Source: Candidatus Harpocratesius repetitus
GTDB lineage: Archaea; Asgardarchaeota; Lokiarchaeia; Sigyniarchaeales; Promethearchaeaceae
NCBI GenBank assembly: GCA_021498095.1
Contig: JAIZWK010000001.1
Span: 450,001 to 482,000 of the forward strand
Length of the DNA: 32,000 bases
Direction: 5' to 3'
Position 1 is the stretch's first letter; each line of letters opens with the position of its first letter. Positions 17,464-30,017 of the stretch are shown here, piece after piece. The notes under the pieces are model-generated. The model saw nothing but the letters and a program-made list of their open reading frames with translations. It did not search any database and had not been told where the DNA came from. Made by a program: the position numbers and the translations under genes.

Positions 17464-17571
17464 GATATATTTCCAACTCTATTTAAATTCATAGTTCTCT
17501 TCATTCTTAATCTTGAAATTTTCAATTGAAAAATACATAGCACTTAAAAAGGATTTAAATTGATTATTTAT

Positions 17572-17860
17572 GAGCTTTTATCAACATTTGATAGATTGAT
17601 AAAAAAATAAAAATCATGCATAATTTACGCATTTACCAACATTCCATCCAAATTTGAAATTTGTCGATTAGAAATTTAGAACTTTTTTTATCAAATTCAA
17701 CTATAATATGATTAAAAATAGTCAAAAATCGACCCATAATTATATTTTTTAAAGTTCATTTTTGCCGACTGAAATAATTCTTGGATAGAATTGATTATTG
17801 TCGGAAAATGAAAGATTAAAATGGCAATTCAGTCAAAAATAAAGAAGTTGCTAGAACCTC
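17572..17860 (-). mobile_element. MITE copy A (289 bp)
   Basis: Ends GAGGTTCTAGCAAC / GAGCTTTTATCAAC (11/14 inverted match); perfect 4-bp TSD TTAT (17568-17571 and 17861-17864); alignable along its length with 20512-20798 and 29211-29813; no ORF. Confidence 0.8.
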
Positions 17861-17889
17861 TTATAACAAATTTTATTAAAATGAAAATT

Positions 17890-20264: not shown

Positions 20265-20511
20265 ACTCTCACCAAATTTAATACTATTTAAAGTCCTAAT
20301 AATACTTTAGAGCATAATGTATTTAAGTGTATTGCATTCTGGTTGAAATATGATGATTTTTCATAAATATGAAGAGAAAAATGAGTGAGATCATAGATGT
20401 CTACAATTATATTAATTTCTTCCTATCTATGAGGGTTTTTCCCCAATCAATAAGGCAATTAAAACTTCTTTTCATAGTCAAAAAAAAGTATCATACAATT
20501 TCAATTTATAT

Positions 20512-20798
20512 GAGGTTCTAACAACTTCTTTATTTTTGACTGAATTAGAATTTCTATATTTCATTCTTCGACATTAATCAAATTTTTCTTTCAATTATTT
20601 CAGTCGGTAAAAATAAGACTTAGAAAATATAATTACGATTCGATTTTTGATGATTTTTAATTGAAATATTATTGAATTTGATAACAATGTTTCTAAATTT
20701 TTAGTCGACAGATTTCAAATTGGGTGGAATATTGGTAAAAACGTAAACTAAGCAGAATTTTTAATTTTTTATCAATCTATCAAATGTTGATAAAGCTC
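20512..20798 (+). mobile_element. MITE copy B (287 bp, more diverged)
   Basis: Same GAGG...GCTC ends and internal blocks as copy A; flanks ATAT / ACAT (3/4 match). Confidence 0.75.
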
Positions 20799-26804: not shown

Positions 26805-28418
26805 GTGAACATGAGTAATTCAACCCATAAACCGGATTTTTCTACGCAATCATCTTCAGAGAATATTAAGAATAATGGTTTTAATCGTCTTTATCATAAA
26901 AAAGGCAATAAAACGAAGAAAGAAAAAGAAAATAATACTGAGAAAGAAAAAGGTACTAAAACAGAGAAAAACACTAAAAATAATAAAAAATTTTCCGATG
27001 AGAGTACAGTTACTCGATTATCTATTATATTGGTTATTATTGTTTTCATAATTAAGGTAAGTGTTTCTTTTATTACCAGAAGTTTATCTTTTATAGTTGA
27101 ACTTTCTGATTCTATAATAGATTTGGTAGCAGTTTCGATTACGTTTATCGCACTGAAAGAAAGTCAAAAAGAACCTGATTTTGAGCATATGTTTGGTCAT
27201 GAAAAGATTAATTCATTTGCTGCATTTTTACAGAGTTTACTAATTTTAGGATTATATGGGGGATTACTGTTCAGCACCATAAAAAATTGGATAAACGGTA
27301 CTTTAATTGAAACATCCAACACTTTATGGGGAGTAGGGGCATTGGTTCTTATAATTACTTTAGTGTTTATTGTTTCTCATCAAATAATTCAGATTGGAAA
27401 GAAGAGTAAAAACCAATTAATTCTGGCACAAGGAACCAATTTTCGCGGCGATTTTTATCGTAATATTACTGTAATTTTCAGTTTAACTGTTTCATATTTT
27501 GGGATCAAATATATCGATGCAATTGTGGCGATTTTGTTTTCGCTTAAAGCAATTTATGAAGGATTCCAAATATTATCCCAAAGTTATAAAGAATTAATCG
27601 ATACTAACCCAATTTCGAAAGAACAGGTCGAAAAATTGCAAAAAAAACTAGAAAGTCTTCCAGGAATTCGAGAAATCCAAGATCTTAAAATCAGAACTAC
27701 AGGAAACAAACTAGATTTATCACTATGTATTAAAATTAAGGGAAAACAAAGAGCATTTCAGATAGATTTGATTAATGAACGGATGCGCAAGATAATTGAA
27801 AAAGAATTCCCAGAATACAACTGTAATACATACTTCTGTACTCAATCACCCAAAAGACACCCTCATTTGACCGACATTCAATGGATTTCTAATATAATAC
27901 GGAAATTGGCTGAAAACAATTCATTCATAACCAATGTTCACAATATTGCTATAGATCAATTTCAAGATGATTTTTTAATTCAATTACAAATAGATCTTCC
28001 AGGTTCAATCTCGTTAACGGAAGGTCATGAGATTATCACGCAATATGAAAAAGATTTAAGGAATATCATAAATCAAACTCTAAAACAAAGCACAAATATT
28101 GAAATAATTACTCATTTAGAGCCAACACATGAATATGAGAGAGTACATTCTCATCCTGTTTTAGAACAAGCTCCTGAAAATCTTAAAGTTGAAATAGAGC
28201 AACTTGTGAAAAAATTTCCCGATGTTAAGGAGATTCACGATATCCGAATATTAACAGAACCAGAAGGGTGGTTCCTTTCATTTATGATACACATCGATGG
28301 AAAAATTTCAATTATGCGGGCACATGCTCTTAACGAGCAAATTGAGCAGGTACTTTTTACTCATTATCCTCAGTTGAAGGACTGTACAATCCATACAGAA
28401 CCATATGAAAATGATTAA
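26805..28418 (+). CDS. Cation diffusion facilitator (CDF) transporter with three tandem C-terminal domains
   Basis: TM2 DSIID, PDFEHMFGHEK, TM5 NFRGD; three ZT_dimer-like repeats, the last two ending THLEP and IHTEP. Confidence 0.88.
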   Translation: MNMSNSTHKPDFSTQSSSENIKNNGFNRLYHKKGNKTKKEKENNTEKEKGTKTEKNTKNNKKFSDESTVTRLSIILVIIVFIIKVSVSFITRSLSFIVELSDSIIDLVAVSITFIALKESQKEPDFEHMFGHEKINSFAAFLQSLLILGLYGGLLFSTIKNWINGTLIETSNTLWGVGALVLIITLVFIVSHQIIQIGKKSKNQLILAQGTNFRGDFYRNITVIFSLTVSYFGIKYIDAIVAILFSLKAIYEGFQILSQSYKELIDTNPISKEQVEKLQKKLESLPGIREIQDLKIRTTGNKLDLSLCIKIKGKQRAFQIDLINERMRKIIEKEFPEYNCNTYFCTQSPKRHPHLTDIQWISNIIRKLAENNSFITNVHNIAIDQFQDDFLIQLQIDLPGSISLTEGHEIITQYEKDLRNIINQTLKQSTNIEIITHLEPTHEYERVHSHPVLEQAPENLKVEIEQLVKKFPDVKEIHDIRILTEPEGWFLSFMIHIDGKISIMRAHALNEQIEQVLFTHYPQLKDCTIHTEPYEND

Positions 28419-28567
28419 GTAATAATTCCTTTGAGAAATATTCCATTAACATTATTGAAAAGAGACAAAACTTATCAACTATTTGATTCTTATTTTGAGA
28501 AAGATCAATCTTTTTTAAGAATTCAAAATTCAATTAACTACGTGCAATAGGAGGCGATTATAAATAC

Positions 28568-29083
28568 ATGAAAGAAAAAGAAATGCACATTTCAATCAGC
28601 TGGCATCCACTGAAGCGTTATGTAAAAATACCACAGATCTTGCGCGGGCCTTCGGATATGAATATTGTCGATGTAATTTATCAAATCGATAAGCAATATT
28701 TTGAGAATCGAAAAAATTCAAAACGCAGCCATCGCTTAGATTTTATGGCTCCAAAAATAAAAAGCAGCTTGCAAATGTTGTGGAATCCGGAAACAGGAAT
28801 GTTTTATGATGATGTTGGAGTTGAATGTAGAACTCCACCTCCTGAATCCCGTACAGTTCCTGTCGAAACAGAATGGAAAACACCTGTACCTAACAATGCT
28901 TGGATAGTTTTGATGCCAGATGCACAATGTTGATGAAATGCAGTAGAAGAGAGGTTGAAACCAGGAAGATTTCTAAATGGATTAAAATCCCAGTGCGGTG
29001 AAAATTCAGAAATATATCAATTCTACTATAAGCAATATCATCAAAACATTAAATCTCAAGATTTGAATGAAGTGAAAGAATAA
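28568..29083 (+). CDS. Hypothetical protein, candidate selenoprotein; ends at 28933 unless TGA is recoded (28936 if only the first TGA is read, 29083 if both)
   Basis: ...MPDAQC-TGA-TGA, then 48 open in-frame codons to TAA 29081-29083, with a SECIS-like hairpin just downstream. The 121-aa core ORF is solid; the extension is a hypothesis. Confidence 0.5.
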
Positions 29084-29090
29084 ACTAAAA

Positions 29091-29160
29091 ATGATCAAAT
29101 TGCTTTGATCAAGGTCTTTCACCAACGCCATGCAAGAGGCTACCTTGAGAAATATTTTTT
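29091..29160 (+). promoter_or_regulatory. Candidate eukaryote-type SECIS element in the 3' UTR
   Basis: UGA (29106-29108) + UCAAGGU (29109-29115) pairs with ACCUUGA (29142-29148) + GA (29149-29150), the tandem G.A/A.G geometry of a SECIS core; unpaired AA at 29124-29125. Confidence 0.5.
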
Positions 29161-29210
29161 CTATTCTTTTTCAAGTTTAATAAAAATTCTAAATATTATT
29201 CCAAATATAA

Positions 29211-29813
29211 GAGGTTCTAGCAACTTCTTTATTTTTGACTGAATTACCATTTTAATCTTTCATTTTCCGATAATAATCAAATGTATCAAGAATTATTTCA
29301 GTCGGCAAAAAAAACTTTAGAAAATATAATTGAGGATGTTTTATCTTTTTTAATTTAAACGCTTTTTTAAATATCATTCATATATTTCCGACTTATATCT
29401 GAAATATCGCAATTCTTTTTTTGTCGAACTCGATTTTTTCAAAGAATTTATTAAAAATTACCATCCTGTTTATAAATTCTTCAATCTGATGTCGATTTAT
29501 TATAATTTTTGATTTGCATATCTTGAATTTAGCACCTTGGTAAAATCGACAAAAAATAAGGAAGGATATTTTAGATTTAAGTCGGGAGAATTAAGATGAT
29601 GAAATGAAAAACTTCGAATCTTTAAAATTTAAAATACCCTCAATTATAAGTCGATTTTTGACTATTTTTAATCATATTATAGTTGAATTTGATAAAAAAA
29701 GTTCTAAATTTCTGATCGACAAATTTCAAATTTGGATGGAATATTAGTAAATGCGTAAATTATGCAGGATTTTTATTTTTTTTTTTTAATCTATCAAATG
29801 TTGATAAAAGCTC
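29211..29813 (+). mobile_element. MITE copy C (603 bp, long form)
   Basis: Same TIRs; perfect TSD ATAA (29207-29210, 29814-29817); carries an extra 314 bp (29332-29645) relative to copy A (603-314=289). Confidence 0.8.
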
Positions 29814-30017
29814 ATAAGTTCTGAATATAAATTCTGACAATAAATTCTAAGTATTATAGCTTTGAATAATGTCAGAAGGAATTTAGGTATAGATTTCATT
29901 GTATTCATTGCGAGCAAAAAACGGATCTTAATACCATTCTGGAATAAAAGATAACCGTTTTTATAAGAAAAGAAGTAATTATAGAGATATTATTTAAATC
30001 GTAAATAGGCAACACCG

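Follow-up and report, generated by a model that had tools for sequence, protein, structure and literature searches.

A candidate family of tandem-selenocysteine proteins with a sulfur-carrier-like fold in Lokiarchaeia

One gene in a 32,000-nucleotide stretch of the genome of Candidatus Harpocratesius repetitus (the window, by which we mean the whole of the DNA that was analysed) very probably encodes a selenoprotein of 171 residues. The gene covers positions 28568-29083 of the forward strand, on which all of the features described below are located, and both of its adjacent UGA codons would be decoded as selenocysteine (Sec) with the help of an Asgard SECIS element. A previous, sequence-only reading of the window had already proposed a selenoprotein of this length, with Cys-Sec or Cys-Sec-Sec. 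We find support for that proposal in the conservation of the TGA-TGA pair, in purifying selection on the peptide that follows it, in a SECIS that is shared by the family and in the Sec machinery of the genome. The protein would represent a new family of tandem-Sec selenoproteins with a ubiquitin-like fold, one that is missing from the archaeal catalogues that we searched.

The reading frame beyond the tandem UGA

The sequence contains a Shine-Dalgarno-like GGAGG (28550-28554) 13 nt 5′ of the ATG. Codons 1-121 (28568-28930) encode what the ORF and an AF2 model suggest is a beta-grasp domain like those of MoaD, SAMP and CysO, the last residue of which is Cys121 (TGT, 28928-28930). The conventional ORF (28568-28933) terminates here, with ...LMPDAQC followed by TGA at 28931-28933, and a second TGA follows directly at 28934-28936. 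We propose that this pair (28931-28936) encodes Sec122 and Sec123. The frame then continues for 48 codons (28937-29080), which on the evidence of alignments and pN/pS values form a C-terminal tail with three predicted helices, and ends in a TAA (29081-29083) that forms part of AUAAAC, an A-rich motif in the apical region of the SECIS. The earlier description of a ...DAQC-TGA-TGA arrangement with an open frame of 48 codons matches the sequence, coordinates included, and the chance of so long a stop-free stretch, previously put at about 2%, is 0.020 when recomputed at the genome's GC content of 31%. Just 3′ of the SECIS there are oligo-T tracts (T6 at 29155-29160 and T5 at 29167-29171) that are likely to be an archaeal transcription terminator (29155-29171), judging from the sequence; T-runs also follow the SECIS in loci L001, L002, L004 and L006.

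The family is widespread within a single class. Of 400 genomes sampled from the phylum, 119 contain a match (about 150 matches in total), and all of these belong to one class, which we infer to be the Lokiarchaeia; there are often two or three copies per genome, and single-contig genomes of the same GTDB family also carry the gene. Every match in the 119 genomes has at least two in-frame TGA codons (scored as '2 TGA' or '3 TGA'), and the tandem motif was read from the sequence itself in about 50 copies of the gene. Cys-TGA-TGA is followed by a conserved in-frame peptide in all eight of the close homologues. A comparison of homologues at these codons had been suggested as a check, and it shows the TGA pair kept throughout, with none of them stopping at TAA or TAG and with a conserved peptide downstream. 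In a second group of paralogues the pair is preceded by Asp (Asp-TGA-TGA, or HAD-U-U), and because of this group it is the predicted Sec-Sec pair, and not the preceding Cys, that is the invariant feature of the family at the sequence level.

The tail has a recognizable signature in the family alignments, x-x-[VIF]-x-x-R-[LMI]-x4-[FY]...[FY]G...Y. Across the 33 codons that follow the UGAs, a comparison of 14 pairs puts pN far under pS, much as in the body of the protein, e.g. 0.22 versus 0.74, 0.08 versus 0.84 and, for the window gene and its closest relative L007, 0.05 versus 0.16 with an intact frame in both. These values indicate that the tail is translated and under purifying selection. An in-frame TAA in L001 was considered as an argument against translation of the tail and was rejected; the sister genome L030 reads CAA there, so the TAA either arose in one lineage or is an error. 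A profile search of 1.84 billion representatives returned no Cys-for-Sec homologues, only TGA-truncated forms, one metagenomic gene call (P0008) that renders the TGA pair as 'WW', and two non-Sec homologues, P0011 (C-V-S) and P0033 (C-I-T), in which body and tail form a single polypeptide. Cys-for-Sec homologues are usual for selenoproteins, but they are not obligatory.

The SECIS element and the Sec machinery

The hallmarks of Asgard SECIS elements are an AUGA...GA kink-turn core, an 8-bp helix and an A-rich loop (PMC11227280), and the family was judged by a GA_[G/A]A core, an upper stem of 7-15 bp and an apical loop or bulge rich in A. Of 29 loci of the family, 25 have a hairpin of the form AUGA-N-8bp-A-rich loop-8bp-N-GA that begins 101 to 143 nt past the TGA pair, against a chance expectation of 0.018 per locus, or about 0.5 over the 29. 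All eight pairs of its stem covary, while the percentage of stem pairing is partly circular, as the elements were picked by a scan that demanded pairing. At the level of the family, then, the eukaryote-like SECIS that had been claimed for this gene is present. It resembles the SECIS of SelD in the same genome. In six loci the UGA within the SECIS core also serves as the stop codon. The scan left L035 and L066 (where the 3′ side is 'UA', not GA), L038 and L058 without a resolved element.

The training set of a covariance model, R1, came mostly from the largest GTDB family and represents branches other than that of the window. The model gave 21 hits in 309 kb and, by coordinates, 21 of 21 lie just 3′ of family genes, including Asp-type paralogues that were absent from the training set. 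R1 misses the element of the window, those of its close relatives L001, L004, L007, L029 and L030, those of L066 and L080, and also that of SelD.

For the window gene, we propose that the conserved SECIS is a type II element of the Asgard eukaryote-like kind at 29067-29125, based on homology to L004 and L033 and on the minimum free energy (MFE) fold. Its 5′ side consists of AUGA (29067-29070), an A (29071), the 5′ arm GUGAAAGA (29072-29079) and an A-rich bulge (29080-29091). The apical part is a ministem (29092-29099 paired with 29104-29111) with the loop UUGC, followed by AGG (29112-29114), and the 3′ side comprises the arm UCUUUCAC (29115-29122), a C (29123) and AA (29124-29125). The element matches those of L004 and L033 in position and sequence, and differs from them in one compensatory pair (U-A/A-U) and in 25 extra nucleotides inserted into the apical loop. 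It is both the MFE and the centroid fold (z = -3.09), starts 130 nt past the TGA pair, an offset identical to that in L034, and spans the TAA stop, so partly overlapping the coding region. Its 8-bp stem, 12-nt bulge, 8-bp ministem and 4-nt loop fall within the published limits for type II elements, and both the AUGA_AA core and the type II ministem have been reported from Lokiarchaeia as natural variation (PMC11227280). The element is atypical in having AA, not GA, in its 3′ core and an apical region of 35 nt versus about 11. Because of this, and because R1 misses it, decoding in this genome may be weak. Searches of the locus against Rfam were negative for SECIS and for every other family, at gathering and permissive thresholds alike.

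The sequence-only reading had placed the SECIS further downstream, in a hairpin at 29106-29150 built from UGA (29106-29108), UCAAGGU (29109-29115), ACCUUGA (29142-29148) and GA (29149-29150). The letters are as it gave them, and so is a second AUGA at 29091, but this hairpin is not the conserved element and is probably not a functional SECIS. Its folding is no better than that of shuffled sequence (z = -0.33), and it is displaced by about 40 nt in the 3′ direction from the position at which the family conserves its SECIS. In L007 the UGA has become CGA and the stem has acquired a U.C mismatch, both substitutions falling in the core or stem. The two folds are mutually exclusive, as both need 29115-29122, and the element at 29067-29125 remains the MFE and centroid structure even when the hairpin is included in the folded stretch.

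The Sec machinery, which had been named as a further check, was looked for in this genome only. A tRNA-Sec (59.8 bits) and SelB/EFSec (247 bits) score above their cut-offs, as do SepSecS (443 bits) and SelD, which itself carries one in-frame TGA and so contains Sec. The candidate for PSTK is weak, at 94.8 bits (E = 8e-27) versus an NCBIfam cut-off of 290.5 bits.

Alternative readings of the tandem UGA

The most conventional alternative is that TGA-TGA is a genuine double stop, that the product is a 121-residue 'GC-tailed' ubiquitin-like carrier, and that the sequence downstream is a re-initiated small ORF or a conserved untranslated RNA. Every public gene call does end at the Cys, tandem stops are a common fail-safe, and a TTG at 28955 could begin an ORF of 42 amino acids, which is a separate gene call in L007 and also P0027. 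Yet conservation starts at the first codon past the pair, ahead of the possible starts, and no start codon is conserved. A fail-safe would be expected to drift between TAA, TAG and TGA, whereas some 150 copies all have TGA-TGA. With P0011 and P0033 continuous through the site, a large, protein-like excess of pS over pN in frame 0 of the tail and a SECIS that keeps its distance from the TGA pair in nearly all loci, we consider a double stop extremely improbable. Read-through of the UGAs without Sec fares little better, and we think it very unlikely that near-cognate Trp, Cys or Arg, or a local change of code, accounts for the frame, with the hairpin as a general stimulator of read-through. The Trp-Trp call of P0008 and the failure to find Cys-for-Sec homologues speak for it. 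Against it, TGA is an ordinary stop in this genome, where it terminates 329 of 1969 ORFs of at least 250 amino acids (17%), so there is no change of code; the hairpin bears the hallmarks of Asgard SECIS elements and looks like that of SelD; and the family is limited to lineages of one class, most Lokiarchaeia being users of Sec (PMC11227280).

A third reading accepts the selenoprotein family but holds that the copy in the window is decaying, its SECIS crippled by the 25-nt insertion and a GA-to-AA change, so that mainly or only the 121-residue form is made. That R1 does not detect the element, that its 3′ core is AA and that its apical region is so long are all in keeping with this. However, L007 shares both the insertion and the AA core, with frames intact in both genes and the constraint on the tail described above; the differences between the two elements all lie in bulges or the ministem, none in the core or upper stem, and the variant features are reported as natural in Lokiarchaeia and lie within type II limits (PMC11227280). 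Decay of this copy is thus unlikely, if less so than the two preceding readings, and decoding of both UGAs as Sec is the reading that we prefer.

Fold, gene neighbourhood and known systems

The sequence-only reading had offered a beta-grasp core as a weak guess, and structure prediction agrees with it. AF2, run with Cys replacing Sec, gave an unusable model from six sequences (pLDDT 48.9) that was superseded by one from a 26-sequence alignment (pLDDT 90.1, pTM 0.86). With residues 1-122 of this model, VIA-align finds HVO_2177 (Z 7.5), CysO (7.2), SAMP1 (7.1) and MoaD (6.7); the Z-scores, which range from 6.3 to 7.5, are moderate, with 81-91 residues aligned and the target chains nearly fully covered. 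Foldseek points to the same superfamily (probability 0.9-0.99, E about 0.02). According to the model, the N-terminal domain (residues 1-121) is a beta-grasp of the MoaD/SAMP/CysO/Urm1 type. Sequence searches do not see this relationship: Pfam has no model at E <= 1 beyond scattered noise for 26 members of the family, the ThiS/MoaD models being unmatched, and NCBIfam and PDB sequence searches returned no meaningful match.

The predicted fold is like that of MoaD, ThiS, CysO, SAMP and Urm1 (PDB 2m19, 4n6e_B, 4hro and 1vjk), apart from large insertions at about residues 48-66 and 89-110. The structural matches end at model residues 119-122, where the last strand and '..PD-A-G-C' of the family correspond to the '..PP-x-S-G-G' end of the sulfur carriers. 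The latter have Gly-Gly and a free C-terminus for adenylation and thiocarboxylation; the family instead has G/Q-C-U-U and a tail of about 45 residues.

The neighbours of the gene hint, through gene order, at metal(loid) handling. Immediately upstream in the window is a gene for a cation diffusion facilitator (CDF) efflux transporter (26805-28418; TIGR01297, 187 bits), and Pfam Cation_efflux and ZT_dimer domains are found in the syntenic loci. The same order of CDF and family gene, both on the forward strand, recurs in L079, which belongs to another GTDB family, and CDF adjoins the family gene in four loci from two other GTDB families. The arrangement ArsR, ACR3 and family gene, within about 3 kb, occurs in 13 of the 20 loci sampled, from two GTDB families, and a neighbouring ACR3 scores 288 bits, above the equivalog cut-off; these counts come from related genomes and are not independent samples. 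In five other lineages sampled the neighbours are unrelated to metals. The contigs that encode P0014 and P0026 are short and tell nothing useful of their neighbourhood. No search of the family gave an ArsD-like match.

We can outline how such a protein might work. The UGA pair at 28931-28936 would be decoded as Sec by machinery of the archaeal/eukaryotic type, directed by the element at 29067-29125, and would place Cys-Sec-Sec exactly at the Gly-Gly end of the sulfur carriers, ahead of the conserved helical tail. The C-U-U (or D-U-U) site could bind or relay a soft metal(loid), e.g. As(III), or sulfur or selenium species, a role that would tie it to the ArsR-ACR3 or CDF efflux genes that adjoin most copies. 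Inefficient decoding of the double UGA would probably also give a 121-residue product ending in Cys. Taken to its full extent, this outline describes a carrier of a new type that uses selenium to chaperone metal(loid)s, or to relay Se or S, and hands As(III) or some other soft ligand on to ACR3 or CDF pumps, with selenium supply switching between the full-length and the Gly-Cys-tailed 121-residue form, and an Asgard machinery that routinely decodes consecutive UGAs about 100-140 nt 5′ of a SECIS. We put this forward tentatively, as a speculation that we think rather unlikely to hold in all its parts. A somewhat stronger possibility, though still one that we would not favour, is that Cys-Sec-Sec is not a metal(loid) site and is instead a redox centre (a selenenylsulfide or diselenide) or an S/Se relay that feeds Fe-S or selenophosphate metabolism. 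The scaffold is that of a sulfur carrier, G-C-U makes up the first three residues of the GCUG of thioredoxin reductase, a NifU_N/IscU gene starts 5 nt downstream of the non-Sec homologue P0011, and redox enzymes, among them prismane, AFOR and a hydrogenase subunit, are encoded next to the gene in several lineages. However, ArsR-ACR3 and CDF are the conserved neighbours met with most often, no E1-like (MoeB/ThiF/UbaA), rhodanese or reductase partner is found among the recurrent linked genes of 24 loci, and the Asp-Sec-Sec paralogues have no Cys for a Cys-Sec selenenylsulfide.

The Asgard selenoproteins in print, identified by homology to known families, belong to seven families with eukaryote-like SECIS elements, namely SelD, HdrA, VhuD/FrhD, VhuU/FrhA, Prx-like, AhpF-N-like and DsbA-like proteins (Mariotti 2016 PMC4989117; Huang 2024 PMC11227280), and a 2026 review lists 11 archaeal families. 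Neither the 2024 nor the 2026 catalogue includes the present family, which is unrelated to any that they list, in line with the earlier remark that it matched no recognised archaeal selenoprotein. A literature search for a beta-grasp or MoaD-like selenoprotein, or for a new Lokiarchaeial selenoprotein family, found none, and Haft's 2022 preprint does not contain it. The family shares with the known Asgard selenoproteins a SECIS at or just past the 3′ end of the CDS, built from AUGA...GA (or AA), some 8 bp of helix and an apical loop rich in A, as well as the use of one SECIS for more than one UGA and of a UGA near the SECIS as a stop. Unlike them, it has Sec codons that are directly adjacent and a SECIS that lies partly within the coding region.

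If correct, an uncatalogued family in 119 of 400 genomes means that the Lokiarchaeial selenoproteome is larger than reported, and that the genes of this family are systematically truncated in annotations. The family would also offer a natural system in which to study how an archaeal/eukaryote-like machinery inserts two Sec residues in a row, with a very short spacing from UGA to SECIS, a SECIS that overlaps the CDS and, in some copies, a SECIS core whose UGA doubles as the stop. Furthermore, it would bring selenium chemistry together with a ubiquitin/sulfur-carrier fold among the archaea most closely related to eukaryotes.

Judging by their names, the only catalogued prokaryotic models with Sec-Sec are NCBIfam NF041537 (ArsM_AhpD_UU) and NF041536 (ArsM_DUF2284_UU), which are related to arsenic. 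By those names they belong to other protein families, being ArsM (arsenite methyltransferase) fusions from bacteria, which use a bacterial SECIS. Both models surfaced as weak hits of a neighbouring methyltransferase. A more distant comparison is with thioredoxin reductase, whose C-terminal redox motif is Gly-Cys-Sec-Gly (GCUG). The two have in common a vicinal Cys-Sec that follows a Gly, in a flexible segment. In the family, however, the final Gly gives way to a second Sec, the motif lies within the chain and not at its end, a flavoprotein domain is lacking and one group of paralogues has no Cys.

Predicted read-through of a conserved TGA pair

The gene in the window begins with an ATG at 28568 on the forward strand, behind a GGAGG at 28550-54, and its first part ends ...LMPDAQC, with the final Cys codon TGT at 28928-30. 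As the sequence-only reading had described, two in-frame TGAs follow (28931-33 and 28934-36), and beyond them the next 48 codons are free of stops until a TAA at 29081-83 closes the frame; at the genome's 31% GC a stop-free run of this length has a chance of 0.020. The pair could be a fail-safe double stop that happens to precede an unrelated ORF, and in the databases the annotated protein stops at this Cys in all five homologues (63-96% identity). In the DNA of all loci, comprising the five homologue contigs and two from genome and metagenome scans, TG[TC]-TGA-TGA is followed in frame by the conserved peptide N/D-A-V/L-x-E-R-L-x-P-x-x-F-L...G-E-x-S...Y-x-F/L-Y...Y-H. One of these loci, the MAG locus L001, has an additional in-frame TAA, which is lineage-specific since its sister L030 reads CAA at that codon.

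A profile search of 1.84 billion representative proteins returned 32 relatives. Most of those inspected end in ...PDAGC, one has been called with 'WW' across both TGAs, and in two V-S or I-T replaces the pair and the same tail follows in a single polypeptide. By six-frame search the family is found in 119 of 400 genomes of the phylum, across seven GTDB families of one class only, and in the largest of these families it is present in 100 of 135 genomes. All of the matches, some 150, have two in-frame TGAs; a few have three, the third being the terminator where examined. Most copies in the fetched loci carry a [PD]-[ASP]-G-C-U-U motif. Another group of paralogues, whose genes often lie close by, reads V-H-A-D-U-U with Asp in place of the Cys, and therefore the constant feature of the family is the Sec-Sec pair rather than the Cys. 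In 14 pairwise comparisons pN is far below pS over the 33 codons that follow the TGAs, much as it is over the 31 preceding codons. Together, the conserved pair, the in-frame tail and the pN/pS results exclude a double stop with an unrelated ORF.

A change of genetic code is likewise excluded, because TGA is an ordinary terminator in the host, closing 329 of 1969 long ORFs. The tandem-Sec family is, as predicted from these comparisons, a real selenoprotein family. It is apparently undescribed: literature searches for such a family found nothing. The available text of the 2016 (PMC4989117) and 2024 (PMC11227280) Asgard papers and of a 2026 review gives seven Asgard and 11 archaeal selenoprotein families; there is no beta-grasp protein among these, and that text makes no mention of adjacent Sec residues.

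SECIS elements of the family and the proposed element of the window gene

Family loci were scanned with a simple pattern modelled on the Asgard criteria published in PMC11227280. In 25 of 29 loci an AUGA-N-(8 bp)-(A-rich loop of ~11 nt)-(8 bp)-N-GA element starts 101-143 nt past the TGA pair, against a background rate elsewhere of 3.2e-4 per nt, or 0.018 expected per locus. The stems are wholly different between branches, yet still paired, with double-sided changes at all 8 stem pairs; the observed covariation was reached in 0 of 500 shuffles, although there is some circularity in the percent-paired figure, pairing being a condition of the scan. From 16 family elements a covariance model was built, which gave 21 hits in 309 kb, by coordinates all directly behind a family gene and none elsewhere, and these take in the D-U-U paralogues and L085, a locus that the pattern scan missed. 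In six loci (L040, L042, L045, L047, L056 and L061) the UGA of the AUGA core is the gene terminator, so that one triplet belongs to the kink-turn motif and also serves as stop codon, in keeping with the minimal distance that Mariotti et al. (PMC4989117) propose as a rule for lokiSECIS. In the window gene, L001, L004 and L033 it is the TAA stop that falls within the A-rich apical motif.

For the window gene, the sequence-only reading had proposed a hairpin from UGA 29106 to GA 29150, and noted a second AUGA at 29091; both are present in the sequence. Alignment of the window and L007 with L004 and L033 identifies a different element at 29067-29125, the same AAUGA-N-GNGNANGA-AUAAAC ... G-UCUUUCNC in all four. 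Its AUGA core is at 29067-70, its stem arms are at 29072-79 and 29115-22, and its A-rich bulge holds the TAA stop. What sets the window gene and L007 apart from L004 and L033 is a U-A/A-U compensatory pair, a 3′ side that reads AA where the others have GA, and 25 nt inserted into the apical loop; this insertion contains an 8-bp ministem (29092-29111) and turns the element into a type II form. The element lies within the published type II limits, and AUGA_AA cores have been reported as a variant in Lokiarchaeia (PMC11227280). The proposed element is nevertheless unusual in this family, and the covariance model does not find it. This element is both the MFE and the centroid fold (z = -3.09), even with the rival hairpin included in the folded stretch; that hairpin, folded alone, has z = -0.33. 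Furthermore, the three differences in L007 fall in bulges or the ministem of the 29067-29125 fold, but in the core or stem of the other, which we reject as the SECIS. The earlier interpretation stands in substance and fails only in its SECIS placement.

The insertion forms a near-perfect 8-bp palindromic hairpin, UGAUCAAA/UUUGAUCA, common to the window and L007 only. T-runs follow the proposed SECIS at 29155-71, and a MITE-like repeat (29168-29835, arms 80-96% identical; further copies at 17550-17866, inverted, and 20469-20794) begins directly after this likely T-rich terminator, leaving the SECIS untouched.

Selenocysteine in the host genome

The window comes from a 4.36-Mb genome in a single contig; of the relatives that have a name, 'Candidatus Harpocratesius sp.' and Promethearchaeota MAGs come closest to it. 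The Sec machinery that the sequence-only reading asked to confirm is largely in place: tRNA-Sec (found by aragorn; Rfam RF01852, 59.8 bits, above cut-off), SepSecS (443 bits), EFSec/SelB (above the NCBIfam cut-off) and a SelD gene with one in-frame TGA of its own; a PSTK-like match is weak and falls short of the cut-off (94.8 bits). The SelD 3′ UTR carries a SECIS on the minus strand (contig 3802250-3802287; L014:1257-1298) of the form ACGA-C-(8 bp)-GUAAAC...-(8 bp)-C-GA. Its core is ACGA...GA, not AUGA...GA, and the covariance model does not detect it; the GUAAAC apical motif is common to the new family's elements. Aragorn's count of tRNA genes for the entire genome is just 21, probably since it misses intron-containing archaeal tRNAs. 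It also lists a tRNA-like gene of 90 nt whose two-base anticodon, '(ta)', it leaves undetermined (contig 1531718-1531807, minus strand).

Two small ORFs on the minus strand have an in-frame TGA within an ...IYRG-U-C-G... motif, and the family SECIS model scores 39.5 and 27.5 bits behind them. One lies at contig 1470511-1470807 (L062:1557-1853; SECIS 1470455-1470493) and the second copy has its SECIS at 3231679-3231729. NCBIfam NF041239, 'CC/Se motif family (seleno)protein', scores 32 bits against the first of them, short of its cut-off of 40. On sequence grounds these are predicted to be another selenoprotein family missing from Asgard catalogues.

Gene neighbourhood, fold and likeness to sulfur carriers

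Of 20 sampled loci, 13, belonging to two GTDB families, have the order [ArsR][ACR3][unknown 205 aa][family gene][YdjM]; the ACR3 scores 288 bits (above the TIGR00832 equivalog cut-off). A CpaM/HgcA-like corrinoid methyltransferase sometimes joins this order. A CDF efflux transporter gene lies immediately upstream of the gene in the window's lineage and in a further GTDB family, and a Na+/H+ exchanger gene precedes it in one lineage. Elsewhere its neighbours are unrelated; a NifU_N gene follows P0011, a homologue without Sec at the TGA positions. A cluster of two selenols, with or without one thiol beside them, would be well suited to binding As(III) or soft metals, or to carrying S or Se. Gene order among related genomes slightly favours metal(loid) handling over a redox or relay role.

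In the window's CDF transporter (26805-28418) the N-terminus is extended by ~65 residues rich in Lys and Asn, and ~200 residues lie C-terminal to the CDF core; two stretches are reported for the CDF model. In L082 (7160-8830, minus strand; homologues in L076 and L081) a CpaM-like methyltransferase is fused to an HgcA-like corrinoid protein (NF040863, 163 bits; NF043039, 174 bits; both below cut-off). In some genomes this fusion sits beside the family gene and ACR3; it is possibly a metal(loid) methylation enzyme in Lokiarchaeia.

Sequence searches of Pfam, NCBIfam and PDB gave no match for any of 26 family members. AlphaFold2, with the 26-sequence alignment, predicts a beta-grasp domain over residues 1 to about 121 and then three helices (pLDDT 90.1, pTM 0.86). 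In an exhaustive structural comparison the top matches to this model were HVO_2177 (Z 7.5), CysO (7.2), SAMP1 (7.1) and MoaD proteins (6.3-6.7). Foldseek found the same proteins and Urm1, and the AFDB clusters were uncharacterised proteins and the MoaD/ThiS families. What the sequence-only reading offered as a weak guess, a beta-grasp core, thus agrees with the predicted structure.

HVO_2177, CysO, SAMP1 and MoaD are each aligned nearly full length and the alignments end at model residues 119-122; the C-U-U would therefore occupy the position of the sulfur carriers' Gly-Gly terminus. The carriers (MoaD/ThiS/CysO/SAMP/Urm1) end in Gly-Gly, whereas the family has neither Gly-Gly nor a free end there, no HMM match to the group and no linked E1 among its recurrent neighbours in 24 loci. 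It is not a member of the sulfur-carrier group, with which, according to the model, it has the beta-grasp fold in common.
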